Source: Escherichia phage UB
Sequence record: MH383160
Strand: one strand, 5' to 3'
Length of the DNA stretch: 64,000 nt
Part shown: piece by piece, positions 36,818 to 57,893 of the stretch
Layout: each line of letters begins with the position of its first letter
Position numbering within the stretch: position 1 is the stretch's first letter
Made by a program: the position numbers and the translations under genes
The notes under the pieces: model-generated
Seen by the model: the letters and a program-made list of their open reading frames with translations, nothing else
Told to the model about the DNA's origin: nothing
The model's database searches: none

Positions 36818-36820
36818 TAC

Positions 36821-44484: not shown

Positions 44485-44520
44485 AGTGAGCTATCTCTCA
44501 ATGAATATATAATAGCAAAC

Positions 44521-44922: not shown

Positions 44923-44972
44923 TTTGTTTCTCCTGTTCTTGGGGAGAATCATTTCTCCCCTTCATGTAAACT

Positions 44973-45000
44973 ATTATACAGTACTAAAAACTAATTGCAA
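44973..45000 (-). promoter_or_regulatory. sigma70-like promoter
   Basis: minus strand TTGCAA-N16-TATAAT; hairpin GGGGAGAAATGATTCTCCCC. Confidence 0.5.
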
Positions 45001-45003
45001 GTA

Positions 45004-45150
45004 TTATTTTTTAGATTTACGTAAACTTTCTACCATCTCAGGAGTAAGCCCCAGCGGGTAGGAAACCACTTCATCCACAAAACGCAAAGGGAATACCCCA
45101 TCTAAAGTTGAACGTGCTTTCTTATTAGTACTCTTTTTTGATGCTTTCAT
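45004..45150 (-). CDS. small hypothetical protein
   Basis: 48-aa ORF (MKASKKSTNKKAR...) with AAGGAA RBS. Confidence 0.4.
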   Translation of the reverse strand: MKASKKSTNKKARSTLDGVFPLRFVDEVVSYPLGLTPEMVESLRKSKK

Positions 45151-45201
45151 TTCATATTCCTTAATTAGTGGGGAGAACTATTTCTCCACTTCATGTAAAC
45201 T

Positions 45202-45229
45202 ATTATACAGTACTAAAAACTAATTGCAA
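45202..45229 (-). promoter_or_regulatory. sigma70-like promoter
   Basis: minus strand TTGCAA-N16-TATAAT. Confidence 0.5.
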
Positions 45230-45429
45230 GTATTATTTTCTAAAAAATGTTTGTATGCTGAATCAACCACTCTTTCGATAACATACGCTAACGGCACGTA
45301 TCCAACTACATGACTACAATAAAAAGGACTACGATTAGAATCATCGTATGCAAATACTTTTTCAGGATCTGCATCAATCACATACATATTAACCTTTAAG
45401 ATGTCGATCTTATCCTGTACAGTAAGCAT
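45220..45429 (-). CDS. hypothetical protein
   Basis: ORF track 69 aa. Confidence 0.55.
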   Translation of the reverse strand: MLTVQDKIDILKVNMYVIDADPEKVFAYDDSNRSPFYCSHVVGYVPLAYVIERVVDSAYKHFLENNTCN

Positions 45430-45434
45430 ATTAA

Positions 45435-45707
45435 TTAACCTTTTAAGTACTGGCTTAAGTAGTCTTTTTGATCTTCGGTGATTGCAGTCATCTTCCCTAG
45501 TACTGGGTTGATGATATAATCCCCTGTAACGTCCTGTGACGCATTCTCAGGGTGTTTAACGGCTGGGGTAGCCATAGCCATTGCCTGGACTTGTTCGACG
45601 CTGTAACGCTCATAAAGGCGGCATTCTTCCGGTGTTAACATAGCATCAGTACGCTTCATCGGTTTAATGATGCTTTCGATCTCATTCAGTACTTGATTAA
45701 CGTTCAT
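45435..45707 (-). CDS. hypothetical protein
   Basis: ORF track 90 aa. Confidence 0.6.
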   Translation of the reverse strand: MNVNQVLNEIESIIKPMKRTDAMLTPEECRLYERYSVEQVQAMAMATPAVKHPENASQDVTGDYIINPVLGKMTAITEDQKDYLSQYLKG

Positions 45708-45758
45708 GGTATAATCCCCAATATAAGCGGCCTAAAACGACCGCTAACGATGTTTTGA

Positions 45759-46028
45759 TTAATAGGTGTAAGGTTGACGCTCAAACAATGATTGCACGTT
45801 GTACGCCCCGCTAATGGGCTTTGCTGGCAAATCGATTTTATATTGTTCACGCTTAAAGATAATAAAACGGCAATTGTTTTTAACATCAAAATTGATTGAA
45901 CGTTCCAGGAGTTTTCCATCGTGCACAAATACAAGATAACCGCTTGGTACTTGTTTTGTAGTACTGGTTGCAACCATAGACCGACGAACATGAGTACCTG
46001 CATCGATTAAAGTACTGATATTTTTCAT
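45759..46028 (-). CDS. hypothetical protein
   Basis: ORF track 89 aa; AAGGAA RBS and promoter module upstream; preferred over overlapping frame 45704..46003. Confidence 0.55.
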   Translation of the reverse strand: MKNISTLIDAGTHVRRSMVATSTTKQVPSGYLVFVHDGKLLERSINFDVKNNCRFIIFKREQYKIDLPAKPISGAYNVQSLFERQPYTY

Positions 46029-46059
46029 TTTAGTTTCCTTAGTTGTCTTGATAAAATCT

Positions 46060-46088
46060 ATTATGCCAGTACTATCAAACTATGTCAA
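46060..46088 (-). promoter_or_regulatory. sigma70-like promoter
   Basis: minus strand TTGACA-N17-CATAAT. Confidence 0.5.
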
Positions 46089-46107
46089 TAGTACTGTGAT
46101 AATATTT

Positions 46108-46251
46108 TTACTTACTTTTTGCTTTCTTAATTGCTTCCACCTGGTCGGCCCATTCTTTACCCCATACTTGTAAATTATAATGGTACTGGCAAAGAGCAAC
46201 GCCCCGCTTTAAACCAGTAATAGATTTTTTACCACATTGACAAGTTTTCAT
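46108..46251 (-). CDS. small hypothetical protein with CxC...CxxH
   Basis: 47-aa ORF MKTCQCGKK...CQYH; AAGGAA RBS. Confidence 0.4.
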   Translation of the reverse strand: MKTCQCGKKSITGLKRGVALCQYHYNLQVWGKEWADQVEAIKKAKSK

Positions 46252-46300
46252 ATTAGTTTCCTTGTAGTGGGGAGAATCATTTCTCCCCTTGATGTAATGT

Positions 46301-46328
46301 ATTATACTTTATTCGATTTACTTTGCAA
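46301..46328 (-). promoter_or_regulatory. sigma70-like promoter
   Basis: minus strand TTGCAA-N16-TATAAT. Confidence 0.5.
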
Positions 46329-46336
46329 GTACTTTT

Positions 46337-46564
46337 TTAATTTAATTCATCCAGGCAAAGGATACGCTCAACGCCCAAATCAGTTAAACTAATGGTCGGC
46401 ACTTGATAGGTTTCAATGTATGCTACAGTTGCCCACTGACCGAACTCATTAACGGCCCAGGTATTCATTGCATTTTGCAATTCCGCACCTGCCTTGTTAG
46501 TAATGACTGCAACTACTTGTTCGTTGCCAGTAGTACCAGATACGCGAGTAATGATAATAGCCAT
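46337..46564 (-). CDS. hypothetical protein
   Basis: ORF trimmed to ATG 46564 (MAIIITRVSG) with AAGGAA RBS; upstream codons are translated 5'UTR. Confidence 0.55.
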   Translation of the reverse strand: MAIIITRVSGTTGNEQVVAVITNKAGAELQNAMNTWAVNEFGQWATVAYIETYQVPTISLTDLGVERILCLDELN

Positions 46565-46619
46565 TGTTTTGATTCCTTTGATTTGGAAGGAGAACCGTTT
46601 TCCCCTCTCGATGTAAAAC

Positions 46620-46647
46620 ATTATACGCTAATCTATTAATCATGCAA
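46620..46647 (-). promoter_or_regulatory. sigma70-like promoter
   Basis: minus strand TTGCAT-N16-TATAAT. Confidence 0.55.
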
Positions 46648-46799
46648 GTACTTTTTATTACTTTTTGCAAAATACTTTAAACGCTCTCAATCGCATTCTA
46701 ACGACCTTAACGCCACCAGCTAGGGCGATGTATCAGATAATCAGTTTAATGCGTTAGAATCGATTATAGGCGGTGCTAGTGGACTGGAATACTATAGAC

Positions 46800-46827
46800 A
46801 CAAAAAAGCCCACTGTTTAAGGTGGGC
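46800..46827 (-). terminator. intrinsic terminator
   Basis: minus strand hairpin AGCCCAC-CTTAAACA-GTGGGCT followed by U6; after stop of 46850..47332. Confidence 0.6.
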
Positions 46828-46849
46828 TATTGATTCAGTACTTTAATTG

Positions 46850-47332
46850 TTATGCTTCAACTTTGCGATGAGCTTCGATCCATTCCTCGCGAGTCATACC
46901 GCTTTCTTTGATAGCGTCCAGTACTACCGCAATGCAGTTACCGCGTACAGGAATCAAATGTTCTTCACCGTTATCAAGTACTACAGTAACACGTTCTTGA
47001 ATCCATTTTTTAGGTTTAGATTCTGGCTTATCTTCACCATACTTAACCGCCAGGGCTTTATGTGCCATTTCTACAACTACTTCCAGATCCAATCCAGACA
47101 CTGCCGCCTGGATACTGTCAATTGTTGCTTGCAGTTCGGCTTCACGGGCTTTTTTCTGTTCTTCCAGTTCTGCTACCTTTTTGGCTTGTAATTCTTTCGC
47201 TTCACTGTACGCAATGTTAAAATTGTTGCGTACTGCTTTCATGGTATCGTTATCCAGGTCAGCCAGCAATTCAGCAGCAATAACAGTATCGTTTGAAATC
47301 AGTGCTTTCAGGAATGATTTTACATTAGCCAT
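46850..47332 (-). CDS. hypothetical protein (Lys/Glu-rich, likely coiled coil)
   Basis: ORF trimmed to ATG 47332 (MANVKSFL) with GAGGAT RBS. Confidence 0.6.
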   Translation of the reverse strand: MANVKSFLKALISNDTVIAAELLADLDNDTMKAVRNNFNIAYSEAKELQAKKVAELEEQKKAREAELQATIDSIQAAVSGLDLEVVVEMAHKALAVKYGEDKPESKPKKWIQERVTVVLDNGEEHLIPVRGNCIAVVLDAIKESGMTREEWIEAHRKVEA

Positions 47333-47455
47333 TTTATAAATCCTCAATTAAAGTTTAGTTTACGTTTATTAGTGTATCAAAGTTTTTTTGACGTGTCCAG
47401 TTTTTCGTTCGACTTACTGGCGGTCTACTTAGTGCTCCCCGTCTTGATGTAATAC

Positions 47456-47483
47456 ATTCTACGCCTTTTTGCGGTATTGTCAA
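47456..47483 (-). promoter_or_regulatory. sigma70-like promoter
   Basis: minus strand TTGACA-N16-TAGAAT; ~110-nt leader. Confidence 0.45.
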
Positions 47484-47534
47484 CTACTTTTTTAAAACTA
47501 TTTTCAAAGTATCTCAGTACTACAATACTACAAA

Positions 47535-47564
47535 AATAAAAAAGCCCACTGTTTAAGGTGGGCT
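47535..47564 (-). terminator. intrinsic terminator
   Basis: second copy of AGCCCAC...GTGGGCT hairpin followed by U-rich run; after stop of 47582..47881. Confidence 0.6.
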
Positions 47565-47581
47565 AGTGATTCAGTACTATA

Positions 47582-47881
47582 TTATAAACAGTTAATTACT
47601 CCGGTGTGCGTTACTTTCTCAGTATCCATAACCGTGACCGATCCACGCTTAGTACTTGCATCATAATAAATTGTTGTGCTACCGTTTTCGTCTTCTTCAT
47701 GGAACGGGCCGTTTTTAAATGCTTCTGGTTGGATCTCTAAATCCTTTAAAACAATCTCGCCCGTACTTTCATTGGTCATCGCAACAGTGCACTGAATGAA
47801 TTTTTCACTACTCACATCTAACGACGCATTAACAGCGAAAGAGGAAACAGATAAAGCCAGGGCGATGATTGCAATTTTCAT
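47582..47881 (-). CDS. putative secreted protein with N-terminal signal peptide
   Basis: ORF track 99 aa; MKIAIIALALSVSSFAVNA-SLD signal-peptide-like N-terminus; AAGGAT RBS. Confidence 0.6.
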   Translation of the reverse strand: MKIAIIALALSVSSFAVNASLDVSSEKFIQCTVAMTNESTGEIVLKDLEIQPEAFKNGPFHEEDENGSTTIYYDASTKRGSVTVMDTEKVTHTGVINCL

Positions 47882-47932
47882 TTGATTATCCTTAGTTACT
47901 AGGGGGAACCTCTCCCCCGTGCTATGTAAAAT

Positions 47933-47960
47933 ATTATACAGTACTAAAAACTAATTGCAA
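47933..47960 (-). promoter_or_regulatory. sigma70-like promoter
   Basis: minus strand TTGCAA-N16-TATAAT. Confidence 0.55.
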
Positions 47961-47965
47961 GTACT

Positions 47966-48202
47966 TTATGATTTTTTATAAAACATTTCGGCAGTGATAT
48001 TTTTACCCGTTGGTTGTACTTTATCCAGAATTTTTTGATGCCCAGGCCGTCCAAATGAATATGATCCGTAAACCGTAAACCAGTAGTTACCCTCAGTGTT
48101 TACATGTACAGCACAATAGGGAACGCCCCGCGATTCATCACTAGTAAAGTGTGCTACCGTTCCCGTTACATTCGAAGTCGTTGATTTGATTTGTTCAAGC
48201 AT
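47966..48202 (-). CDS. hypothetical protein
   Basis: ORF track 78 aa; AAGGAA RBS. Confidence 0.55.
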   Translation of the reverse strand: MLEQIKSTTSNVTGTVAHFTSDESRGVPYCAVHVNTEGNYWFTVYGSYSFGRPGHQKILDKVQPTGKNITAEMFYKKS

Positions 48203-48249
48203 TTTCTTATTCCTTAGTTACCAGGGGAACCGCTCCCCCTATGCAAAAC

Positions 48250-48277
48250 ATTATACGCGTTTAAAAACTAATAGCAA
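48250..48277 (-). promoter_or_regulatory. sigma70-like promoter
   Basis: minus strand TTGCTA-N16-TATAAT. Confidence 0.5.
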
Positions 48278-48310
48278 GTATTTTAATAAAAAGTATTTGA
48301 AAAATAATTG

Positions 48311-48339
48311 TTGACAACTGCATCCAGTACTGGCATAAT
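48311..48339 (+). promoter_or_regulatory. sigma70-like promoter on plus strand (divergent)
   Basis: plus strand TTGACA-N17-CATAAT; no plus-strand ORF downstream. Confidence 0.4.
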
Positions 48340-48345
48340 ACTTAT

Positions 48346-48453
48346 ATAAAGACGATACAGTCACTAACCCACAGGGTGCCGAGATCCGTCTATTAAATGA
48401 TTCAGTACTGAAAAAGTAACGGGGAGTTATTATCTCCCCGCGTTGTTATTTGG
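48346..48453 (+). ncRNA. candidate small non-coding RNA
   Basis: ~105 nt between plus-strand promoter and hairpin GGGGAG-TTATTA-CTCCCC (48421..48439) with U-rich tail; contains ACCCACAGGGTGC box; no ORF. Confidence 0.3.
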
Positions 48454-48667
48454 TAAGGTATAAACAGAAGTCACCTTTATTTGCTACGCCGCCAGTGTAA
48501 CGCGATGAATAGTTAGAAATATCTTGTACTTCTGCTATTACCAGTGTATCATCATTCATTTCGTCGCAGAAGCAAACGGCTGGATCTTTAACGCCGATAT
48601 TGTCGGCATGTTCCCGCATAGATTTAACCAGTGCTTCCAGTTGAGAAAGAGTAGTGATATTAGCCAT
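48446..48667 (-). CDS. hypothetical protein
   Basis: ORF trimmed to ATG 48667 (MANITTLSQ) with GAGGAA RBS. Confidence 0.55.
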   Translation of the reverse strand: MANITTLSQLEALVKSMREHADNIGVKDPAVCFCDEMNDDTLVIAEVQDISNYSSRYTGGVANKGDFCLYLTK

Positions 48668-48717
48668 TGTATTTTCCTCATTACCAGGGAGAACCATTTC
48701 TCCCCTCTATGTAAAAC

Positions 48718-48745
48718 ATTATACAGTACTAAAAACTAATTGCAA
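48718..48745 (-). promoter_or_regulatory. sigma70-like promoter
   Basis: minus strand TTGCAA-N16-TATAAT. Confidence 0.55.
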
Positions 48746-48752
48746 GTACTTT

Positions 48753-48941
48753 TTAATTAAATTCCATAAAATCATTCTCAACGTGCACAACAATCTGATT
48801 ATTTTTAAAGTCCGCAGAAAACTCAATACAATCATATACTGCTTTTTCTGTTACCATACTATGAGTACCAATCGGATTAATAGGGGATTGAATTGTTTCA
48901 ATCTCGTTACCTTGTTCATTAACAATTAAAATATTAAACAT
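48753..48941 (-). CDS. hypothetical protein
   Basis: ORF track 62 aa; AGGAG RBS. Confidence 0.55.
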   Translation of the reverse strand: MFNILIVNEQGNEIETIQSPINPIGTHSMVTEKAVYDCIEFSADFKNNQIVVHVENDFMEFN

Positions 48942-48978
48942 AACTTTTACTCCTGATAGTGTTTACCTGATATAAAGT

Positions 48979-49006
48979 ATTATACGCCTTTATTGCTTAG
49001 TGTCCA
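48979..49006 (-). promoter_or_regulatory. sigma70-like promoter
   Basis: minus strand TGGACA-N16-TATAAT. Confidence 0.45.
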
Positions 49007-49203
49007 GTACTTTTTAAAACATAATCAAAGACACTTCTCACATCATTGATCATCGCCTGGCGGTTAGCAGGTAAAGCATCAGGATCACCACTATCCCAAG
49101 CCTGTATGAAGCCTCCAAGCTCTGAATAAACTTTATTACGCAATCCGATTAACTGTAATTCTTTTTCTTCAAGCTCTTTGATACGTTCAATTAAATCACT
49201 CAT
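48997..49203 (-). CDS. hypothetical protein
   Basis: ORF trimmed to ATG 49203 (MSDLIERIKELEEKE) with AAGGAT RBS. Confidence 0.55.
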   Translation of the reverse strand: MSDLIERIKELEEKELQLIGLRNKVYSELGGFIQAWDSGDPDALPANRQAMINDVRSVFDYVLKSTGH

Positions 49204-49220
49204 TAGATAATCCTTAGTAC

Positions 49221-49508
49221 TTAACTGTAAGATCCGCAACGGTCGCAGTAGTGCCCGTCTTCCTCGTCATCGTCAACGAATTGCCCGACGAAATGATCTA
49301 CTTTCGCTTTCAGGTTATTATAATCGTTTTCTACTTCCTTTAATCGTTCCTGGTAGTATTCCAGTGCCTCAAGATACGCCGCCTCAGCAGTTTTTGCACG
49401 CATAGCTAAATTCATGCCACGCGATTCATCATAAAGCCAATAACCATCAGTGCACTGGCTAATAGATAATGACTTGCTTAATACTGTATAGCTAATTACT
49501 TTGCTCAT
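49221..49508 (-). CDS. hypothetical protein
   Basis: ORF trimmed to ATG 49508 (MSKVISYTVL) with GAGGAA RBS; C-terminal HYCDRCGSYS. Confidence 0.55.
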   Translation of the reverse strand: MSKVISYTVLSKSLSISQCTDGYWLYDESRGMNLAMRAKTAEAAYLEALEYYQERLKEVENDYNNLKAKVDHFVGQFVDDDEEDGHYCDRCGSYS

Positions 49509-49526
49509 TAGATATTCCTCAGTAAA

Positions 49527-49546
49527 GGCGGGAACCATTCCCCGCC
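49527..49546 (-). other. intercistronic GC hairpin
   Basis: GGCGGG-N8-CCCGCC between 49564..50175 and 49221..49508; no promoter in this gap. Confidence 0.4.
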
Positions 49547-49563
49547 ATTATCTCAGTACTAAA

Positions 49564-50175
49564 TTAATATGCGATTGATTCTACTACGCCATCAATAACA
49601 TTGAATTGATACTCGTTACCCTCGATCAGTGCCGTGATGTTCTCAGTAGTGAATTGATCCTCATATGCATTCTCTAAATCACGGTACAACTTGCGGGATA
49701 ATTCACGAATAGTTTCAGTGAGTAGTTCCTCAAGCTCATTAACTAACGTTTCTTGTTTTGCGGTTAAATCAGTGTAAGCCGATTCAATGTACCCGCTTAC
49801 AGTATTCTCATGCGAGTAGTGGGAGTGAGAACGCTTTACACTCATCGGCAAATCATCTTCATTCAGCAGGTGACGGATTGAGCGATACTTAGTTAATGCT
49901 CTTACCTTGCGTAAAAACTTCACTGCGTCAACGTGGTCAGTACTGATTGATGCACCGTCACCTTGCGACCAAAAACCACTGAATCGTAAATCTGCGTCAT
50001 TAATGCCATATTCCGGTAGTACTGTTTCTTTATAGTATTCAATTTCACTTTCAGAAAAATAATCATCGTTTAAGTTTTTTTCACGTTCCCGAACCAGTTC
50101 GATAGCTGACGTTTGTTGTTCTGCGTTCAATTCAGAAAAAGCCATAACATAAGTAGTAGTAGTGATAGTTTTCAT
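49564..50175 (-). CDS. hypothetical acidic protein
   Basis: ORF track 203 aa; GAGGGT RBS. Confidence 0.6.
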   Translation of the reverse strand: MKTITTTTYVMAFSELNAEQQTSAIELVREREKNLNDDYFSESEIEYYKETVLPEYGINDADLRFSGFWSQGDGASISTDHVDAVKFLRKVRALTKYRSIRHLLNEDDLPMSVKRSHSHYSHENTVSGYIESAYTDLTAKQETLVNELEELLTETIRELSRKLYRDLENAYEDQFTTENITALIEGNEYQFNVIDGVVESIAY

Positions 50176-50207
50176 TTTGTAACCCTCATTCAGTAGTTGA
50201 TGTAAGT

Positions 50208-50235
50208 ATTATACGCTTTTAAAAACAATTGTCAA
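50208..50235 (-). promoter_or_regulatory. sigma70-like promoter
   Basis: minus strand TTGACA-N16-TATAAT. Confidence 0.55.
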
Positions 50236-50317
50236 ACTATTTTATCAGGGGAGTTTTTCGTGTGCCTTACTCCTGGGCTACTTAACGGGGAGTTACTTAT
50301 TTCGTCCCCCGTCCTGA
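50236..50317 (-). repeat. ~80-nt structured non-coding unit between tandem promoters (copy 2)
   Basis: near-identical to 40277..40358, with the same flanking promoter arrangement. Confidence 0.4.
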
Positions 50318-50325
50318 TGTAAAAC

Positions 50326-50353
50326 ATTATACGCCTTTAAACATAGTTTGCAA
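50326..50353 (-). promoter_or_regulatory. sigma70-like promoter
   Basis: minus strand TTGCAA-N16-TATAAT. Confidence 0.5.
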
Positions 50354-50402
50354 GTACTTTTTGAAAAATAGTTTTTAATCACTTTTATATAGATACACTC
50401 CC

Positions 50403-50416
50403 GCACCCTATGGGCT
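50403..50416. repeat. conserved intergenic box GCACCC-N3-GGGCT
   Basis: gcaccctatgggct; here followed by a different hairpin CCGGCTT-N17-AAGCCGG (50429..50459). Confidence 0.45.
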
Positions 50417-50476
50417 ATCGCCTTGTGTCCGGCTTGTAAGTATTATCTCACTAAGCCGGATAATGGTCAAGTACTT

Positions 50477-50743
50477 TTATTCAAGTACTGCTATCTTTTT
50501 AGTACTGTACACAGTAACACGGTTGCCCTTGCGGTCGTGCTTTATTTCTACCACTCGACGCGATACACTATCAGGACTTTTTAACGCCGATAACCAGTAC
50601 TGTAAGGATCTGGCTGTACTTTGCTTTACTACCGCCCAACGTTTACCACGTTCCGATTGCACGCCCATATCTTTAAACGTTGCCCCGTCCTGGCGAGCGG
50701 CGATCCGAGCTTGTTCACGCGTTGCAAAGTATATAATATTCAT
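50477..50743 (-). CDS. hypothetical protein, FATRE...HDRKGNRVTVYS paralog
   Basis: ORF trimmed to ATG 50743 (MNIIYFATREQARIAARQDGATFKDMG); paralog of 38767..39162. Confidence 0.55.
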   Translation of the reverse strand: MNIIYFATREQARIAARQDGATFKDMGVQSERGKRWAVVKQSTARSLQYWLSALKSPDSVSRRVVEIKHDRKGNRVTVYSTKKIAVLE

Positions 50744-50825
50744 GCTGTTATCCCATCGTTGATGTATGAATAAAATCCTATTATAAAGTACTATCACCGT
50801 GCAATAGTACTTTAAATAAATTCTA

Positions 50826-51065
50826 TTACATTCCAACCATTGCAGCACGGATCGCCGTAGTGCTATATTTGAATCCGTCCGGCGTTTTATCTTGTCCAGT
50901 CTGTTCTAAAAATAGCATCATATGACGGGCCGCATCATTGCGATTAGTGTTAGCGGCAATAAAGTCCTGGGCCAACCGGTATAATGATTCATCGTTATTA
51001 ATCCAAAGGCTTACATTCCATTGAGTTTTGTTAGCGTGACCTAAGAACATTTTTGATTTAGCCAT
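50826..51065 (-). CDS. hypothetical protein
   Basis: ORF track 79 aa; GAGGAT RBS. Confidence 0.55.
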   Translation of the reverse strand: MAKSKMFLGHANKTQWNVSLWINNDESLYRLAQDFIAANTNRNDAARHMMLFLEQTGQDKTPDGFKYSTTAIRAAMVGM

Positions 51066-51120
51066 TTTTAAATCCTCGTTTGATTTGAGGCGGGAATAGT
51101 TCCCGCTCTCGATGTAAAGT

Positions 51121-51148
51121 ATTATACGCTATTTGTTAGTACTGTCAA
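51121..51148 (-). promoter_or_regulatory. sigma70-like promoter
   Basis: minus strand TTGACA-N16-TATAAT. Confidence 0.55.
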
Positions 51149-51163
51149 ACTACTTTTTAAAAC

Positions 51164-51526
51164 TTATTCGTAAATCTTGCCACTGTCAGCCCATACCAGG
51201 AAACGAGGCATATTATCCCATGCATCTTGTTTTAAATTTAAACCGTGTAATACTTCTGTACTTTCCATTCCTGGTACTGGTTTACTATACACCGCGAACA
51301 ATTCACCCATATACTGATAAGCCATCGTTAAATCACTTGCGATCATCTTATGGATCATCGCATCAAGCATCACGGTAGCGGCGTATTGTTCACGCTTAAG
51401 CGGTAACATTGCAATAAGTTCCCGATAAGCTGAAATGTGAATTTTTACCGTTTCTGCCGGAAGATCTTTCATCTCGTCGCGGAAGTTAACCAGGTTAGCA
51501 ATAATTTTATTGATTTGAGTAGCCAT
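51164..51526 (-). CDS. hypothetical protein
   Basis: ORF trimmed to ATG 51526 (MATQINKIIANL); first gene of the early-like block. Confidence 0.6.
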   Translation of the reverse strand: MATQINKIIANLVNFRDEMKDLPAETVKIHISAYRELIAMLPLKREQYAATVMLDAMIHKMIASDLTMAYQYMGELFAVYSKPVPGMESTEVLHGLNLKQDAWDNMPRFLVWADSGKIYE

Positions 51527-51581
51527 CGTTTTAATCTCTCTTAAAGTGTAGCGGGAAGTGTTCCCGCTCTCGATGTAAAAC

Positions 51582-51609
51582 ATTCTACACCTTTCCCAAT
51601 ACTTTGCAA
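51582..51609 (-). promoter_or_regulatory. sigma70-like promoter
   Basis: minus strand TTGCAA-N16-TAGAAT. Confidence 0.5.
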
Positions 51610-51845
51610 GTACTTTCTACAAATACTTTTAAAATAGTTTTCTTTCTATATAGGAGTACTATCATTCAGTACTGCTACACTAGAATCAATCAACCAAATC
51701 ACTACTATACCCCATAAAACGGCCTCAGACGCATTCTAACGCATTAATACACCTAAGCTATACATTTGCACCGCCACCAGCTAACCAGGGCTTTACGATG
51801 CGTTTAAACGCGTTAAATTATTTTCAATTATTTTGTTTTTTGCTA

Positions 51846-51873
51846 TTGACTCAGTACTAAAAAAGCGTATAAT
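51846..51873 (+). promoter_or_regulatory. sigma70-like promoter on plus strand
   Basis: plus strand TTGACT-N16-TATAAT, directed toward the iteron region; no ORF downstream. Confidence 0.4.
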
Positions 51874-52061
51874 TACTACATAGACGCGAGAAAGCGGATA
51901 TCCCAAGGGGTGCGGAATTGTGCCCAAAATTCAAGATATAAAAAAAAGGATACACTCCCGCACCCTAGCAGGTCAAAGCACTTTCTCAGTACTGAATCAT
52001 AGTACCATAGTACGCCCCAGGATGGCAAGCAAATTAATTAAAACTTTTTTCATCCAGGGTA

Positions 52062-52089
52062 TTGCTTTATTTTTCCAGTACTGTATAAT
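52062..52089 (+). promoter_or_regulatory. sigma70-like promoter on plus strand
   Basis: plus strand TTGCTT-N16-TATAAT followed by AGCCCACCGGGTGC box (52116..52129). Confidence 0.4.
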
Positions 52090-52187
52090 AGTTTCATCAA
52101 GTCGAGAAAGACTATAGCCCACCGGGTGCATAGTTACGCCCAAAATTTCAGTACTAGATTATTTTTTAAAAATATTCATCCAGGCGG

Positions 52188-52216
52188 TTGACATTGCCCC
52201 CAGTTTATTAGATAAT
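52188..52216 (+). promoter_or_regulatory. sigma70-like promoter on plus strand
   Basis: plus strand TTGACA-N17-GATAAT immediately upstream of the iteron-like repeats. Confidence 0.4.
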
Positions 52217-52312
52217 GATTCCAGATTCAGAAAAATCTAACTCCAGATACTGCGGGGAAACTATCCCCACGCGGTAGGGGAACTATTGGAAAAAAACAAA
52301 ATAAAATTTTGA

Positions 52313-52500
52313 TTTAGCCGTCTATACTTCCAGACGTGTAACCATCTAGCCGTTTAGCCGTCCAAACGTCTAGCCATACAGCCATCCAGAAATCTAGCCG
52401 TTTAGCCGTCTAGATAGATAGCCATCTTTACTTCCAGACTTCTGGAGGGCTAGACATATCTACGTCCAAAATCCATCCAGGGTAACTACGCCCAAAATCC
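52313..52500. repeat. iteron-like direct repeat array (candidate replication origin or protein-binding array)
   Basis: TAGCCGT x5 and TAGCCAT x2; 19-mer ATCTAGCCGTTTAGCCGTC repeated at 52344 and 52392 (48-bp period); CCAGA motifs; non-coding. Confidence 0.45.
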
Positions 52501-52622
52501 GTCAGTACTATACCATAGATCTATCTTTTGAAAGGGAGTATTCAGTACTGCCACAATAGCCCTCACTGTTACTGTAGGAGGATGAAGACTATCATGTAGT
52601 ACTGAATACTGTTAGAGGGAAC

Positions 52623-52642
52623 CCACCAGCTTGTGCTGGTGG
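52623..52642. other. strong GC hairpin
   Basis: perfect 8-bp stem CCACCAGC-TTGT-GCTGGTGG, no U-run. Confidence 0.4.
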
Positions 52643-52826
52643 CATAATGCTTTAGATTAAAATCAGTACTAATACCATTCTGTTAATATCAGTACTGTTA
52701 TTACGATTTTCATATGAGGTTCAAAAAGATGTACCACCACAGGAGGAACTATCTTTTCTGTACTGTCTCACGACAGGAGGTAGAGTAAATGAATTGTTCG
52801 CAGCAACTCATCTCTCTATGTAGAAC

Positions 52827-52854
52827 ATTATACAGTACTGAATCATAATGTCAA
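52827..52854 (-). promoter_or_regulatory. sigma70-like promoter
   Basis: minus strand TTGACA-N16-TATAAT, directed leftward into the non-coding iteron region. Confidence 0.45.
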
Positions 52855-53492
52855 TAGCTTTCTTTCATTATTCAGTACTGATATTCTTGAGAACTACCCG
52901 ACTACAAACATCATTATATCCCACAAATCATAAACGTCCCAACGTAAATTTCAACTTTCGAAGATCCAACTTTTATTTCATAGGTACTCCAAAATTTTTA
53001 GGATCGAGATTTAGGATGGAGTACTAACCAACTTTTTGCTGGAGCCTCAAGGGGTAATGGAATTTTACCCCGAAGGGTAAAGGGGTAATTGAAATTAAGG
53101 TGAAAGTAATAATTCAGTACTAATCATTGCGTGATTACTTTTGATTACATTTGATGTAATTTGAAAAATGGAAAAGGAGCTTGGAAACTACAAAGTACGG
53201 CAGACTTCCTCTGCCTACTTAGTGGCATATTAGTACTGAATCATTCACACACATTTCCGTGCATTCTTGAGCAATCTTGTCTATACTAATCAGTACTGAA
53301 TCATATATAATCATTCTGTGATTCTACGGTGCTCATATAAATGTTTATATATGATTACTTATGACTACCTATGATTACGGGGTTTAGCCTGGGGAGAATC
53401 CTAGTGATCGCATTTGTCCAGGCTGAATTTTAACAATTCGCCTGTACATAAAGGTTGTTCACTAGGAGCTTCCCCTGTCTACTTGTGTTTAA

Positions 53493-53693
53493 TTACTTCC
53501 TATATATAAGCATTAAGATATAGTAGTACTGATTGTACTGTACATTCTCTTTAATATTATAAGGGTCTATAGCAATCTCGGTACATCTGTTAAATGCATA
53601 TCTATTAAATGCCAGTGGAATTATAGATCTAATCCATACTTGTTCATTTTCTTTTAGTTTACTTATATAGAAGTTTTTATACTCTTTATGCAT
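53493..53693 (-). CDS. MHKEYY family small protein (hypothetical)
   Basis: ORF track 66 aa; MHKEYKNFY...YYILMLIYRK. Confidence 0.55.
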   Translation of the reverse strand: MHKEYKNFYISKLKENEQVWIRSIIPLAFNRYAFNRCTEIAIDPYNIKENVQYNQYYYILMLIYRK

Positions 53694-53706
53694 AGTATTA
53701 TGTCTA

Positions 53707-53889
53707 TTAATATGATAGTACTAGTGTTAGTACTGAGCACAATTTTTCTTTATAGTTCTTAGGGTATATAGAATCTTTTATGCACTCATTGAAGTGCCAT
53801 AGGTATAATCTTGGGTCGCATTCTTTATATATTCTTACGGGGACGAATGTTAGTTTTCTTATATAGAATTCTTTATGTTCTTTATTCAT
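53707..53889 (-). CDS. MHKEYY family small protein (hypothetical)
   Basis: ORF track 60 aa; MNKEHKEFY... Confidence 0.55.
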   Translation of the reverse strand: MNKEHKEFYIRKLTFVPVRIYKECDPRLYLWHFNECIKDSIYPKNYKEKLCSVLTLVLSY

Positions 53890-53890
53890 A

Positions 53891-54079
53891 TTAGTACCTG
53901 AATATAAGTAGGATTATGTTATAGTACTGGTTAGTACTGCAATGATTCTCTATACATCGATTAACAGTTATGGAATAGCTATATCTGGCGTAAGCATTAT
54001 CCAGCGGGATTTTACATTGAGCACTTAGAGAAAGTACAGTAGGTAGTGTATTCAAATAGAAGTCTTTGTAATTATTCAT
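53891..54079 (-). CDS. MHKEYY family small protein (hypothetical)
   Basis: ORF track 62 aa; MNNYKDFY...YNIILLIFRY. Confidence 0.55.
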   Translation of the reverse strand: MNNYKDFYLNTLPTVLSLSAQCKIPLDNAYARYSYSITVNRCIENHCSTNQYYNIILLIFRY

Positions 54080-54281
54080 ACAGGAATAGTATACCTATGA
54101 TGCCGGAGTACAGGTTAGTACTGTTACCATCTTCATTTGCGTTTAAAGTCATTTGAATACAATTATTGTAGCATACTCTGCCGAAATATGTATTAGTACT
54201 TAAAGGTGGTGTAGTCCTTAGAAACATTTGTTCTGAGGGGCTTATGTATTTGGAGTAGAATTCTTTATGTTCTTTATTCAT
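54072..54281 (-). CDS. MHKEYY family small protein (hypothetical)
   Basis: ORF track 69 aa; MNKEHKEFY...; near-duplicate of 57255..57464. Confidence 0.55.
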   Translation of the reverse strand: MNKEHKEFYSKYISPSEQMFLRTTPPLSTNTYFGRVCYNNCIQMTLNANEDGNSTNLYSGIIGILFLYE

Positions 54282-54286
54282 ATTAG

Positions 54287-54472
54287 TTAGTGTCTGTATA
54301 TAAGTAATAGTAAGAATACGTACTGCACATCTTCATCTTTAGTATTGAGTACTGTACGTATTGCGTCATGGAACAAGAATATAGTACTTGGGTCATGAAA
54401 ATTTAAAGGGGTTCTGGGTACGGCACATTTGTAGTTCCCTTTAACAAATTGTGTGTAGTATTCTCTATGCAT
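54287..54472 (-). CDS. MHKEYY family small protein (hypothetical)
   Basis: ORF track 61 aa; MHREYY...LLLLIYRH. Confidence 0.55.
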   Translation of the reverse strand: MHREYYTQFVKGNYKCAVPRTPLNFHDPSTIFLFHDAIRTVLNTKDEDVQYVFLLLLIYRH

Positions 54473-54473
54473 A

Positions 54474-54659
54474 TTAGTACCTATATATTAGGGCGAGAAT
54501 GTAGTACAATTCATATGGAATGTAATTTGGGGTGATCGCACACTGTGTATGGTAAATGAATTGTTCGGTATTTTTCTTATCCTTGATATCTATTGGGATT
54601 TGTGGTATAAGCATTTGGGAGTTTAGATCGAGATGGCTTAAGTAGAATTCTTTATGCAT
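54474..54659 (-). CDS. MHKEYY family small protein (hypothetical)
   Basis: ORF track 61 aa; MHKEFY...YYILALIYRY. Confidence 0.55.
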   Translation of the reverse strand: MHKEFYLSHLDLNSQMLIPQIPIDIKDKKNTEQFIYHTQCAITPNYIPYELYYILALIYRY

Positions 54660-54668
54660 ATTGTTCTC

Positions 54669-54857
54669 TTAGAATACGAAAGCTAGGTACAGGGTATGAT
54701 ACAGTACTCGATGATAGCTGTCAAAATCTAGTATACATGCTTTAGTACACATAGTAAAATACACTTTATCATTTTGTGCATTGATACCGCGAGGTTTATC
54801 TAATAGATTAGTTCTGAGGTACATTGGGAAATATTTTGTGTAGTATTCTTTATGCAT
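54669..54857 (-). CDS. MHKEYY family small protein (hypothetical)
   Basis: ORF track ORF trimmed to ATG 54857 (MHKEYYTKYFPMYL). Confidence 0.55.
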   Translation of the reverse strand: MHKEYYTKYFPMYLRTNLLDKPRGINAQNDKVYFTMCTKACILDFDSYHRVLYHTLYLAFVF

Positions 54858-54858
54858 G

Positions 54859-55041
54859 TTAGTACCTGAATATAAGTAGGATAGTGTTATATAGCTGGTC
54901 ATAACTACTACTATTTTCTATACTTCGTTCTATGCAGTTATTGAATCCAAGTACTGCCAAATCGTTATCCAGAGGGACTTTATATCTGGCGTAGTGTTCA
55001 AAAATGCTGGGGAGAAATTGTTTGTAGTATTCTTTGTGCAT
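54859..55041 (-). CDS. MHKEYY family small protein (hypothetical)
   Basis: ORF track 60 aa; MHKEYYKQF...YNTILLIFRY. Confidence 0.55.
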   Translation of the reverse strand: MHKEYYKQFLPSIFEHYARYKVPLDNDLAVLGFNNCIERSIENSSSYDQLYNTILLIFRY

Positions 55042-55051
55042 ATTGTTCTCT

Positions 55052-55240
55052 TTAGTACTTGAATATTAGGGCGAGGATGTAATACAGTTTATATGTTCTA
55101 TCCTCGTACATTAGGGTGTACTTAGTACATTCTTGGAACATTGTTTTTGCGTCATCTTTTATGCCCAATGTAACGTTTGGTATAAGGCTTTGTAGATACA
55201 TTGGGAGTTTCTCTATGTAGTATTCTTTATAGTTGTTCAT
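55052..55240 (-). CDS. MHKEYY family small protein (hypothetical)
   Basis: ORF track 62 aa; MNNYKEYYIEKLPMYL...YYILALIFKY. Confidence 0.55.
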   Translation of the reverse strand: MNNYKEYYIEKLPMYLQSLIPNVTLGIKDDAKTMFQECTKYTLMYEDRTYKLYYILALIFKY

Positions 55241-55248
55241 ATTATGTG

Positions 55249-55428
55249 TTATTTCGTGAAAACAAGGGTTAGTACTGCATAGTACAAGTCATACGTATCT
55301 TTAGGGTTAATAGCACCTTTAATACATTCTTTCATTAATTCATTATAGATAATTTTAGTACTGAAGGTATTGGATGTTACTATATCGGAATTAAGGTACG
55401 ACAAGTAGAATTCTTTATGTTTGTGCAT
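55249..55428 (-). CDS. MHKEYY family small protein (hypothetical)
   Basis: 59-aa ORF MHKHKEFYLSYL...YYAVLTLVFTK; below ORF-track cutoff. Confidence 0.45.
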   Translation of the reverse strand: MHKHKEFYLSYLNSDIVTSNTFSTKIIYNELMKECIKGAINPKDTYDLYYAVLTLVFTK

Positions 55429-55429
55429 A

Positions 55430-55615
55430 TTAGTACTTATATATTAGTAAAAGGATGTGATACAGTACTCGATTATAGTCTTCAATATATATCGAGGATT
55501 TAGTGCACTGAATGAAGTAGTCTTTTTCGTAGTTTTTTTCTATACCCAATGGTTCTGTTGGTAGAAGGTGTTGGAGATACATTGGGAGTTTCTCTATGTA
55601 GTATTCTTTATGCAT
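55430..55615 (-). CDS. MHKEYY family small protein (hypothetical)
   Basis: ORF track ORF trimmed to ATG 55615 (MHKEYYIEKLPMYL). Confidence 0.55.
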   Translation of the reverse strand: MHKEYYIEKLPMYLQHLLPTEPLGIEKNYEKDYFIQCTKSSIYIEDYNRVLYHILLLIYKY

Positions 55616-56273
55616 AGTTTGTAATATACGTAATGAGGTGATGCATTTTCTTATTAGTACTGATAATTTCCTGTACATGTTTTGTCAGATTGTACGCGTT
55701 TTTATAGAGTACTGGATTATCGATTACAGTACTGTACATGAATAGTTCTTCTTCCTGTAGTTCTTTGTGTTCTAGTTCTTTGAGGAATTGCAGTACTGTA
55801 TCAGTTTCGTCAGTAGGTTGTGCTTGCCAGAAGTGCATTTTCTCGTGTACTTTTTCTGATCCTACGTAGTATCCATCACCGATTTGGAATTGAGCACTAC
55901 TGATATCATTTGGTGTATTACAATTCACGAATAGGTATACGTTTCCATAAGAGATATTCAAAACACACGGGATACCATTTAACTGTATAGTTAAGCCGAA
56001 ATATACGTTTTTTATATTTTTAGTACTAGTATTAGTACTCAATACTTTTAAATCAGTATTATAGATATTCGCATAATCAATAGAGATATTATTTTTCTTC
56101 AAGTACGATTTGAGGTTCTTAGATACGAGAACTGTACTGAATTTATCCTTTTTATTTCGTTTCTTTAGTACATTAGGGTGATAAGTATATGAAGATGTAA
56201 CTGATTCTGCTTGAATACTGTTGAGGTACTTAAAGTGCTTAAGGTATTGTTTACTGTGTGCATTAAGTTTCAT
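55608..56273 (-). CDS. FQ-motif family protein (hypothetical), outlier copy inside MHKEYY array
   Basis: ORF track 221 aa; motif EEELFMYSTVID. Confidence 0.6.
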   Translation of the reverse strand: MKLNAHSKQYLKHFKYLNSIQAESVTSSYTYHPNVLKKRNKKDKFSTVLVSKNLKSYLKKNNISIDYANIYNTDLKVLSTNTSTKNIKNVYFGLTIQLNGIPCVLNISYGNVYLFVNCNTPNDISSAQFQIGDGYYVGSEKVHEKMHFWQAQPTDETDTVLQFLKELEHKELQEEELFMYSTVIDNPVLYKNAYNLTKHVQEIISTNKKMHHLITYITNYA

Positions 56274-56283
56274 TTGGTTTCCT

Positions 56284-56463
56284 TTATATAGATGCCAGGG
56301 CGAGGATTTCCCTGTAGGGATTATCTTGTGTTAGTACAGAATAAATGCAGCTATTGAGATTAATATTTTTAGTACTTTTTGTTCCTAGTTTGTAGTAATC
56401 AACGAATGTGTCGTACATGAAACGGTCTTTTATGGTTATACGTTCTATATAGAATTGTTGCAT
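56284..56463 (-). CDS. MHKEYY family small protein, divergent (hypothetical)
   Basis: 59-aa ORF MQQFYIERITIKDRF...; below ORF-track cutoff. Confidence 0.4.
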   Translation of the reverse strand: MQQFYIERITIKDRFMYDTFVDYYKLGTKSTKNINLNSCIYSVLTQDNPYREILALASI

Positions 56464-56471
56464 AGTATTCC

Positions 56472-56654
56472 TTATATAGAGATTAGTTTCATTACTTCTC
56501 TGTATGTGTACTTTTCGTTTTGTGCATCTCTTGTGACGACATATAGGAAGGTGTGTTTATCTTTTTTGTTCCCGCAATTGTAGAAAATATTGAACTTATT
56601 GAAGTTGAATCTTTCGGCGTGTTGTAGTTTAGTTAAATAGAATTCTATGTTCAT
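56472..56654 (-). CDS. MHKEYY family small protein, divergent (hypothetical)
   Basis: ORF track 60 aa; MNIEFYLTKL...KYTYREVMKLISI. Confidence 0.5.
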   Translation of the reverse strand: MNIEFYLTKLQHAERFNFNKFNIFYNCGNKKDKHTFLYVVTRDAQNEKYTYREVMKLISI

Positions 56655-56662
56655 TTTATTCC

Positions 56663-56848
56663 TTACATTTCAATAAGTTTAAGTACTGCTCGGTACGTGT
56701 ACTTAGTTGTCAGTGCTTCTTTAATAGAAACACAGAAGTAATGTTTTTTGTCTCTTATACTGCCGCGTTTGTAGTACCACACATGGGAGTTGTGACTGTA
56801 CTTGTCTCTGTCGGATAGTTGTTGGTAGTAGTAGCTTATATGATTCAT
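56663..56848 (-). CDS. MHKEYY family small protein, divergent (hypothetical)
   Basis: ORF track 61 aa; ...KYTYRAVLKLIEM. Confidence 0.5.
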   Translation of the reverse strand: MNHISYYYQQLSDRDKYSHNSHVWYYKRGSIRDKKHYFCVSIKEALTTKYTYRAVLKLIEM

Positions 56849-57057
56849 TATAATGTAATTAGCCTTACTATATTAAAGTACTCGGTTCCTGGTGTACCTT
56901 GTAGTATATTACGCACGACATTTTTTTGGTGCTGGATGATTGCTGAAGGTGCGGTTCTTTTTAGTTTTTTTAAAGTACTGAATTCTTGTTTAAGTATGAA
57001 CTGTACATCTTTAGGGAGAATATCTATGTAGTACTGATGAATGTTTGTAGTTTTCAT
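56848..57057 (-). CDS. MHKEYY family small protein, divergent (hypothetical)
   Basis: ORF track 69 aa; MKTTNIHQYYIDILP... Confidence 0.5.
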   Translation of the reverse strand: MKTTNIHQYYIDILPKDVQFILKQEFSTLKKLKRTAPSAIIQHQKNVVRNILQGTPGTEYFNIVRLITL

Positions 57058-57067
57058 ATAGCACCTT

Positions 57068-57262
57068 TTAGAACTTAAAGATGAGGTTCAGGATAGAGCG
57101 GTACTTAGTTTCAGGGAACTGATGTTCTATTGCATAACGTGTCGCCATCCTGAAATCGTAATTGTAATATAGATTATCCTTTCTCATAGGTGGTGCTAAA
57201 GAGAATGATAGCTGGTCTTGCTTGTGTAGTTTACTACCATAGAAATCTTTATGATTATTCAT
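57068..57262 (-). CDS. MHKEYY family small protein (hypothetical)
   Basis: ORF track 64 aa; MNNHKDFY...LNLIFKF. Confidence 0.55.
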   Translation of the reverse strand: MNNHKDFYGSKLHKQDQLSFSLAPPMRKDNLYYNYDFRMATRYAIEHQFPETKYRSILNLIFKF

Positions 57263-57464
57263 AGAAGTAGATTAGTCCTATTAAACCTGAGTACATAATA
57301 TTTTTGTTATTGCATTCGATTGCTTCTAGAGTACTACGTATACAATTATTAAAGCAATCTCTACCGAATTGAGTATTGGTACTTACAGGTGATACACTCC
57401 TTAGAAACAATTGTTCTTCGTTGCTAAGGTATTTGGTGTAGAATTCTTTATGTTCAGTATTCAT
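57255..57464 (-). CDS. MHKEYY family small protein (hypothetical)
   Basis: ORF track 69 aa; MNTEHKEFYTKYLS... Confidence 0.55.
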   Translation of the reverse strand: MNTEHKEFYTKYLSNEEQLFLRSVSPVSTNTQFGRDCFNNCIRSTLEAIECNNKNIMYSGLIGLIYFYE

Positions 57465-57465
57465 A

Positions 57466-57669
57466 TTAGTACTCGATTAATAGGGTAAGGATGTAATAGT
57501 ATTGCATACATTCTACCCCTTGTAAAGCATTTCTTATGTTATTATTCCTGTACGAGTTCAGGAGTTTAGGGCTACGTTTGAGGTGTTTGAAATTAGTTTG
57601 TGTATGCAGTAGGCTTTCACGTAGACCTTTTGTTGGTAGTGCATCGATGTAGTACTGTTCGATATTCAT
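57466..57669 (-). CDS. MHKEYY family small protein, divergent (hypothetical)
   Basis: ORF track 67 aa; MNIEQYYIDALP...YYYILTLLIEY. Confidence 0.5.
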   Translation of the reverse strand: MNIEQYYIDALPTKGLRESLLHTQTNFKHLKRSPKLLNSYRNNNIRNALQGVECMQYYYILTLLIEY

Positions 57670-57893
57670 ATAGATAGCAGTACTAAGATTTTTGATAATT
57701 GTTTATTGCTATCCCCGCAGATGTTGCTGTGTAAAATACTCACAATGAGGGTATCAATTGCATTGTTCATCATAAGGGTGCATCCTGGACTATTATAATT
57801 TTTTAGCTCAATTAGCCACGAACTATCCGAGAGAAATTCCCCGTACTCTAGTTCATTTAGAGTATTGAGGTAGTACTTAAGAGTATTTGTCAT
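57666..57893 (-). CDS. MHKEYY family small protein, divergent (hypothetical)
   Basis: ORF track 75 aa; first gene of array; AAGGAG RBS. Confidence 0.5.
   Translation of the reverse strand: MTNTLKYYLNTLNELEYGEFLSDSSWLIELKNYNSPGCTLMMNNAIDTLIVSILHSNICGDSNKQLSKILVLLSI

Follow-up and report, generated by a model that had tools for sequence, protein, structure and literature searches.

Conserved short-repeat arrays surround the right boundary of the direct terminal repeat in Asteriusvirus jumbo phages

Little is understood of how phages form long exact terminal repeats, T5 and SPO1 included. At the concatemer junction of T7 and T3 the terminal repeat is reportedly flanked by the short-repeat arrays SRL and SRR, and the ends are formed through a hairpin intermediate. 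The record of the siphovirus T5 has a terminal repeat of 10,219 bp (1-10,219) with minus-strand pre-early genes in its left part, iss annotated at 9140-10149 and a 1.78-kb gene-free stretch (9158-10935) that straddles the repeat boundary; the T5 region is highly conserved, rich in repeats and palindromes, and overruns 270 bp into unique DNA (Davison, 10.1101/866236). RpoD-like early promoters have been described in and near the terminal repeat of the jumbo phage CBB (PMC5259590). As to the genome ends themselves, published work on these jumbo phages has so far reported repeat lengths only and nothing on sequence elements; the literature searched on these phages describes neither terminus cis-elements nor the AGTACT motif treated below. 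The present case, in Escherichia phage UB (sequence record MH383160), belongs to a known kind of element, being the terminus and packaging-signal region of a phage with a long direct terminal repeat (DTR), and has not been characterised before. One stretch of 64,000 nucleotides of this genome, hereafter the window, was analysed, and its non-coding DNA at 52860-53490 contains the right DTR boundary and thus the fixed right end of the packaged genome.

The window is Asteriusvirus DNA, from a jumbo coliphage of the PBECO4/121Q/G17 type. BLAST searches of deposited phage genomes with 52400-53600 and with the region itself returned 42 records, all of at least 310 kb and nearly all from Escherichia or Salmonella Asteriusvirus phages (PBECO4, 121Q, G17, phAPEC6 and others), with 78-99% identity over 52860-53490. 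Within Asteriusvirus, certain records exceed the others by about 20 kb and give two hits with the query. The G17 record closes with a second copy of its first 20,668 bp (350,150..370,817) in the same gene order, at an offset of 350,149 bp. This record ends in ...GGCAGACTTCCTCTGCCTACT, the last base of which is window position 53219, while its position 1 (AGGTTACCCGCC...) corresponds to window 33510, and the end of the E9.1 record, when reverse-complemented, is identical to the G17 start. Alignment of record ends shows that all nine DTR-containing records (G17, E9.1, CRJP21, BAU.Micro_ELP-22, fEgEco12, vB_Ec-M-J, BF17, WPEC5 and WPEC3) stop at one identical base, window 53219, which lies 4 nt past the TCTGCC arm of a hairpin. 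Genome ends were taken from deposited records of several laboratories; those of fEgEco12 have been confirmed by PhageTerm and restriction digests (PMC13070987), and repeat_region features are annotated in vB_Ec-M-J, fENko-Kae01 and CBB. The repeat and its two boundaries are as follows, with a caret marking the predicted cut.

33510-53219, no strand: direct terminal repeat unit, 19,710 bp in the window, present at both virion genome ends; delimited from the G17 copies
33505-33518, plus strand: left DTR boundary and left genome end, CGCTA^AGGTTACCC, predicted cut 33509/33510; from the G17 start and the E9.1 end
53215-53224, no strand: right DTR boundary and right genome end, CTACT^TAGTG, predicted cut 53219/53220; CCACTA^AGTAGG on the other strand

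The ends are therefore unique and non-permuted, the terminal sequence is duplicated and the boundary sequence is conserved, as at a fixed-end DTR packaging site. Headful packaging (pac, of the T4/P22 type) was rejected because the ends are not permuted and are identical to the base in nine records, and a cohesive-end (cos) site because about 20 kb are duplicated at both ends. A reading made from the letters of the window without database searches (the sequence-only reading) had proposed that this DNA might belong to a packaging region. That proposal stands in so far as a genome end lies inside the region at 53219/53220, with repeats on both sides of it; cleavage by terminase at this position is the putative packaging cut.

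Conservation was followed across the boundary in seven relatives aligned across the divergence of the genus (G17, 121Q, TH47, UE-S1, ph0011, A4 and Turkey5). Identity is about 0.9 for the gene-free DNA within the repeat and 0.94 for the final 40 nt of that repeat, while the three 40-nt bins that begin exactly at 53220 fall to 0.64, 0.45 and 0.55; conservation then returns to 0.96-0.97 in an island at 53340-53419, and the MHKEYY genes beyond have a mean identity of 0.59. At the right boundary itself TGCCTACTTAGTGG is invariant in 7/7 relatives, as is TGCCTACT^TAGTGG, A4 included, though A4 has diverged just upstream. The flanking non-coding blocks, listed below with the spacer, are conserved as DNA.

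52940-53057, no strand: almost invariant non-coding block (identity 0.97-0.99 over 52940-53019)
53244-53337, no strand: variable spacer (identity 0.45-0.64) with indels, among them 30-40-nt insertions in TH47, UE-S1 and Turkey5; a further AGTACT site lies at 53287-53302
53338-53435, no strand: conserved island outside the DTR (identity 0.96-0.97) with a second TGAYTAC triplet (53352-53378) and an inverted repeat, AGCCTGG...CCAGGCT (53386-53424)

The comparison with equivalent regions of related genomes that the sequence-only reading had called for thus finds strong conservation, not the poor conservation named there as grounds for dismissal. Its statement that the region holds no convincing open reading frame (ORF) is also borne out. 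The sole sizeable ORF (59 aa, 52848-53027, plus strand) is broken by a frameshift and stops in five of the seven relatives (121Q, UE-S1, ph0011, A4 and Turkey5) and has no PHROG match, and coding potential was rejected on these grounds; as the DNA there is almost invariant, conservation acts on the DNA and not on a protein. 'Hypothetical protein' coding sequences, for example this 59-aa ORF, are annotated in the terminus region of UE-S1, E9.1, ELP-22, WPEC5 and WPEC3; such calls within the non-coding terminus region are almost certainly over-calls.

The boundary is surrounded by short repeats and by an element that is shared with other genera, the positions of which are given here.

52983-53025, no strand: 43-nt cross-genus element, two TTTAGGAT units at a spacing of 13 bp, enclosed by the inverted arms GTACTCCA/TGGAGTAC
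53051-53088, no strand: GGGGTAA-N7-TTACCCC hairpin with GGGTAA and GGGGTAA array; copy number differs among relatives
53132-53165, plus strand: three TGATTAC units phased at 10 bp, the third inverted, giving ATTACAtttgaTGTAAT
53193-53220, no strand: terminal inverted repeat AAGTAcGGCAGA-CTTCC-TCTGCCTACTT, the last 28 nt, with the predicted cut at its base
53228-53243, no strand: palindromic AGTACT site just beyond the DTR; in the window, fENko-Kae01 and CBB alike, RCTA is followed 6-11 nt further out by TTCAGTACT

All of the hairpins and the GGGGTAA and GATTAC repeats listed in the sequence-only reading were found, with coordinates shifted by a few bases: the perfect hairpin GGGGTAA-TGGAATT-TTACCCC, for instance, lies at 53051-53071 rather than at about 53056-53076, and is followed by GGGTAA-A-GGGGTAA at 53075-53088. 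GATTAC occurs at 53133, 53143, 53353 and 53373, GACTAC at 53363 and an inverted copy, GATGTAAT, at 53153, so that the units form two clusters of three with a 10-bp period, one on each side of the boundary. Such clustering (four GGGTAA within 40 nt, four GATTAC, five AGTACT or two ATTCTTGAG) was not attained in any of 1000 dinucleotide-preserving shuffles of 52860-53490; the perfect 7-bp hairpin, taken alone, is unremarkable (287/1000 shuffles). ATTCTTGAG itself, another of the listed repeats, is found twice (52883 and 53263), with the full 10-mer CATTCTTGAG only once, and is not conserved in the aligned relatives; it is probably meaningless. The arrays vary in copy number between kept flanks, which is usual behaviour for short-repeat arrays: the GGGGTAA array has been deleted from Turkey5 and is longer in ph0011 and A4, and vB_Ec-M-J has four TGATTACTTT units in place of three.

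The hairpin at the very end of the repeat, GGCAGA-CTTCC-TCTGCC at 53199-53215 (loop of 5 nt), extends to an imperfect 11-bp stem of AAGTAcGGCAGA with TCTGCCTACTT. As DNA it folds at -8.1 kcal/mol (z = -4.0), better than every shuffle (0/200). Its 3' arm is invariant, and its 5' arm is changed in TH47 and A4 without compensation. The fENko-Kae01/Munch end likewise opens with an inverted repeat, TATCTTCT-N7-AGAAGATA (z = -2.7). As a universal feature the terminal hairpin was rejected.

Comparison was extended to six boundaries from three genera, namely those of Asteriusvirus, of Klebsiella phage fENko-Kae01 with Salmonella phage Munch, and of Pectobacterium phage CBB. Like the window, fENko-Kae01/Munch and CBB (all RaK2-like, CBB being a Mimasvirus) have DTRs of about 20-22 kb, that of fENko-Kae01 being a PhageTerm-defined 19,736 bp. 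RCTA lies directly outside 6/6 termini, and its orientation at one end of the repeat mirrors that at the other. Given in the inward direction, the boundaries read tCGCTA^AGGTTACCC (left) and ccACTA^AGTAGGCAG (right) in the window, ccGCTA^TATCTTCTC and gGGCTA^AGGCATGAC in fENko-Kae01, and ccGCTA^TATCCGTTC and tCGCTA^AGCGTTACT in CBB. As both predicted cuts fall directly inside an outward-facing RCTA, the repeat is bracketed as ...GCTA^AGG...CTACT^TAG.... The homologue of the left boundary in fENko-Kae01 and CBB (end B) has an invariant CT^TAGC. At the other end (end A) both share TTCAGTACT 6-11 nt outside the boundary and part of the 43-nt element 85-135 nt inside it. Positions 86-128 of Munch and fENko-Kae01, phages that share only about 29% of their genome with Asteriusvirus, match this element at 93% identity, and part of it lies 120-135 nt from the CBB end. 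Both of its TAGGAT units become TACGAT together in UE-S1, ph0011 and A4 in a block that is otherwise invariant; this paired change could reflect a repeated protein-binding site, and could also be a single ancestral event. The genera also differ. The first bases inside end A are TATC... in fENko-Kae01/Munch and CBB and AGTAGG... in the window, the shared element is 85-120 nt away from the end in the former and 194 nt away here, and both lack the TGATTAC and GGGGTAA arrays, CBB also lacking the terminal hairpin. Words common to the two boundaries of the window are near chance, with only AGTACT-type words, TACCCCTTTA/TAAAGGGGTA and the 11-mer CTTTTATTTCA in common. A search for exact copies of the terminal 21-mer and of AGTACTCCATCCTAAATC in contigs from viruses and metagenomes returned a handful, none of which ends at the site.

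Further repeats were observed at the left end. Inside it, at 33510-33700, are the 13-bp arms of a perfect inverted repeat, AAAAAAGTCAAGG (33568-33580) and CCTTGACTTTTTT (33621-33633), repeated (C)CTACGCATT(TT) units and the blocks TTGGACTATG and AATGCATAGGTAATCCCTTGAC, which also occur at the corresponding end of fENko-Kae01 and CBB. Motifs of GGGGTA/TACCCC type lie within 25 nt on either side of the left cut (TACCCC at 33488 and GGTTACCC at 33511), just outside end A of fENko-Kae01 and CBB (ACCCCCTTCCGCTA^) and in the GGGGTAA array; on these few occurrences, GGGGTA/TACCCC may be a terminus-associated motif.

Taken together, the region is read as the right DTR boundary of Asteriusvirus and the site at which concatemers are cut to form the fixed right end, with a probability of roughly 0.6. 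This reading is favoured because nine records share one end base, because conservation steps at 53220 and RCTA adjoins six termini, and because the 43-nt element lies near the same end in Munch, fENko-Kae01 and CBB. It is favoured further by the non-random motif clusters, by arrays that vary in copy number between conserved flanks and by an ORF that is broken in relatives while its DNA is conserved. CRCTAAG occurs 11 times in the window, and so short a motif cannot define the site alone, which argues that flanking conserved elements aid recognition. In the proposed mechanism the replicated concatemer would be cut at 53219/53220 to make the right end of the packaged DNA. Specificity would come from the flanking elements, that is, the TGATTAC arrays on both sides with their spacing of one helical turn, the AGTACT palindrome 8 bp outside, and the GGGGTAA repeats and 43-nt element inside the boundary. 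The conserved elements may bind a packaging recognition component, either the small terminase subunit or another DNA-binding protein, that positions the nuclease. For the hairpins and short repeats, the most likely role is that of signals near the packaging cut. Once packaged, the same 360 bp would form the extreme right tip of virion DNA, upstream of the first early promoter.

Several points weigh against this reading. The nine records are not fully independent, since some authors may have oriented their genomes after earlier ones. The whole 1.9-kb gene-free region is equally conserved (0.92), and much of it bears promoters. AGTACT is the commonest hexamer throughout the window, so that its presence here is not terminus-specific, and the ends of fENko-Kae01 and CBB have no TGATTAC arrays. 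Turkey5 has lost most of its GGGGTAA array, which is thus dispensable or redundant. The terminal hairpin is missing in CBB (z = -0.5) and, in every genus examined, at the other end, and with its 5' arm uncompensated the structure is probably not essential; what probably matters is the sequence adjoining the cut. The roles assigned to the motifs in binding, cleavage and packaging are read from the sequence.

The layout may be set beside that of T7 and T3, which likewise have fixed ends, a direct terminal repeat, short tandem repeats beside the boundary, an inverted repeat near the right end and strong early promoters a few hundred bp inside the genome end that read inward. The repeat is about 20 kb here and 160 bp in T7. 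The inverted repeat here also differs in being located within the terminal repeat, at its extreme tip, and it has no conserved counterpart in CBB.

The promoters of the repeat bear on a second account of the region. On the minus strand of the DTR (33510-53219) there are about 20 near-consensus sigma-70 promoters, 12 of them scoring 12/12 and all directed leftward, and the DTR is thus predicted to be filled by a very dense field of early promoters. AGTACTG abuts the -10 hexamer in 12 of these roughly 20 promoters, and AGTACT overlaps the -35 hexamer in several others. AGTACT, a palindrome that is absent from the list made in the sequence-only reading, is the commonest hexamer of the window (262 copies; CAGTACTG has 50 copies against 0.7 expected). 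It occurs in coding and non-coding DNA alike, often within a ATTCAGTACTGAAT-type palindrome, with none at 17300-25010 and 28900-33640. Five copies lie inside 52860-53490, mostly as part of a longer palindrome of ATTCAGTACTGAAT type, which looks like a site for a dimeric DNA-binding protein. The promoters and remaining AGTACT sites at the left of the region are these.

52827-52854, minus strand: consensus sigma-70 promoter TTGACA-16-TATAAT (12/12), AGTACTG abutting the -10, invariant in seven relatives; the rightmost in the DTR, 365 nt from the genome end and pointing inward
52868-52883, no strand: palindromic AGTACT site TTATTCAGTACTGATA, just upstream of the -35 of the preceding promoter
52913-52942, minus strand: candidate second promoter TTGGGA-18-TATAAT (10/12), hexamers invariant, spacer variable
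53110-53125, no strand: palindromic AGTACT site TAATTCAGTACTAATC, conserved in relatives

It is possible, though well short of even odds, that the region instead controls early transcription, with its motifs serving as upstream elements of promoters and as ATTCAGTACTGAAT-type operators for a dimeric regulator, and with the GGCAGA hairpin as an intrinsic terminator for minus-strand MHKEYY transcripts. The perfect promoter at 52854->52827, the conserved candidate at 52942->52913, the AGTACTG that abuts so many -10 hexamers in the DTR and the early promoters known from CBB all fit this account, and the hairpin scores as terminator-like on the minus strand, albeit with a poor U-tract. What it leaves unexplained is the break in conservation at 53220, the nine shared ends and RCTA at both ends, and elsewhere in the window promoters are not accompanied by TGATTAC or GGGGTAA arrays. 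The account is compatible with a terminus function and the two may coexist: because the right tip lies upstream of the first of about 20 inward early promoters, the left part of the region probably also serves early transcription. A small non-coding RNA gene, or several, in the conserved blocks would account for high conservation without an ORF and for promoters nearby on both strands, and yet is very improbable. The region has no Rfam match even at E up to 1 and no tRNA, no terminator follows the conserved blocks, pairing is not maintained by the few substitutions seen (the AGCCTGG/CCAGGCT stem is broken in Turkey5) and the 43-nt element has its G-to-C changes at unpaired positions. RNA structure in the conserved blocks was rejected, there being no compensatory changes and a broken AGCCTGG stem in Turkey5.

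Two further accounts concern DNA entry and replication. The layout closely parallels the terminal repeat and iss region of T5. On a T5-like account the gene-free, repeat-rich region at the inner end of the repeat would be an injection stop signal, and entry and expression of the repeat, with its small early genes, would precede those of the remaining genome. T5 Repeat Region 3/iss and the window have in common a long exact terminal repeat, many small early genes and sigma-70 promoters. In both, a conserved, gene-free region of repeats and palindromes lies across the inner boundary (here 51584-53492, 1.9 kb, identity about 0.9), is better conserved than adjacent genes and overruns into unique DNA, by about 270 bp in T5 and 273 bp here. 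However, the T5 region has paired DnaA boxes in inverted repeats whereas there are none at 51-54 kb here, no T5-like phage is among the 42 matched records, T5 is a siphovirus and Asteriusvirus a jumbo myovirus, and two-step transfer is not reported for these phages in the literature searched. Without T5-type DnaA boxes or sequence similarity, this is a resemblance of layout and not membership, and such a role is unlikely. An origin of replication, which the sequence-only reading had also suggested, would take the 10-bp-phased TGATTAC units as iterons beside AT-rich DNA, with replication starting at the repeat boundary. Over the 64-kb window as a whole the cumulative G-C curve is lowest at 52990, with change-point analysis in agreement, the two triplets of helically phased TGAYTAC repeats reach the three or more expected of iterons, and the most AT-rich 40-mers (80% AT) lie near 53136 and 53335. 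Genes on either side of the minimum are on the same strand, however, and composition accounts for most of the switch in skew: unlike all other gene sets of the window, the MHKEYY genes have a strong C excess at codon position 3 (-0.375, vs -0.07 in same-strand DTR genes) and lack the usual G excess at codon position 1. No adjacent gene is recognisable as an initiator, the neighbours being proteins of unknown function, and there is no cluster of DnaA boxes or IHF sites in the region; the DnaA box TTWTNCACA does not occur between 41 and 57.7 kb, with one relaxed match at 53443. Since the skew is mainly a matter of MHKEYY codon composition and no DnaA cluster is present, an origin is kept as a low-probability alternative.

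The boundary at 53219 lies within a stretch of 1.9 kb (51584-53492) that has no conserved ORFs. In the G17 annotation the counterpart of 52860-53490 likewise lies inside about 1.9 kb without an annotated gene, flanked by small minus-strand genes of unassigned function. To its right is the MHKEYY array, a tandem family of roughly 20 genes for proteins of about 60 aa (53493-57893, minus strand, phrog_11711). The region had been placed upstream of this array; as the genes are on the minus strand, it is in fact downstream of them. Nor can it be a second protein-binding array of the same kind, as had been supposed, because the MHKEYY array is a family of protein genes and not of DNA-binding sites.

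Other conserved features were noted to the left, in the rest of the gene-free stretch. At 52188-52216 on the plus strand is an invariant promoter-like TTGACA-17-GATAAT aimed at the genome end, followed at 52230-52290 by invariant GGGGAAACTATCCCC/GGGGAACTATTGG repeats, and together these may mark a small transcript. An 8-bp tandem repeat of CGTCTAGC/CATCTAGC/CGTTTAGC type (52319-52430) varies in copy number (G17 -16 bp, A4 +8 bp) between invariant flanks, one of which has the inverted repeat TTCCAGAC...TCTGGA. A GC-rich hairpin at 52622-52642, CCACCAGC-NNNN-GCTGGTGG, is annotated as a terminator in G17, and its loop is flipped, reading TTGT in the window, TH47, ph0011 and Turkey5 and ACAA in G17, 121Q and UE-S1. 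Three ACAGGAGG/TAGGAGG boxes (52575-52582, 52742-52749 and 52775-52782) are kept in relatives; they would read CCUCCU, anti-Shine-Dalgarno-like, on a minus-strand transcript from the 52854 promoter, and one of them precedes a plus-strand ORF of 11 codons (ATG at 52790).

The data now define targets for the study of how such ends are made, namely a base-precise cut site, a short motif at both ends in three genera and a set of flanking repeats. In many of the Asteriusvirus genomes on deposit (about 348-352 kb) the repeat is missing or the start is arbitrary, and the pair ...GCTA^AGGTTACCC and ...TCTGCCTACT^TAGTGG would allow them to be correctly re-oriented. More speculatively, and as a doubtful proposal, RaK2-like phages of at least three genera may share an undescribed site-specific system that makes their repeats of about 20 kb by two mirror-image cuts, each directly inside an outward-facing GCTA or ACTA and guided by short-repeat arrays particular to each genus and by the common 43-nt element, in which the boundary doubles as a T5-like checkpoint for DNA entry. 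If this is true, the roughly 50 small early genes of the repeat would be delivered and expressed before the rest of the 350-kb genome.

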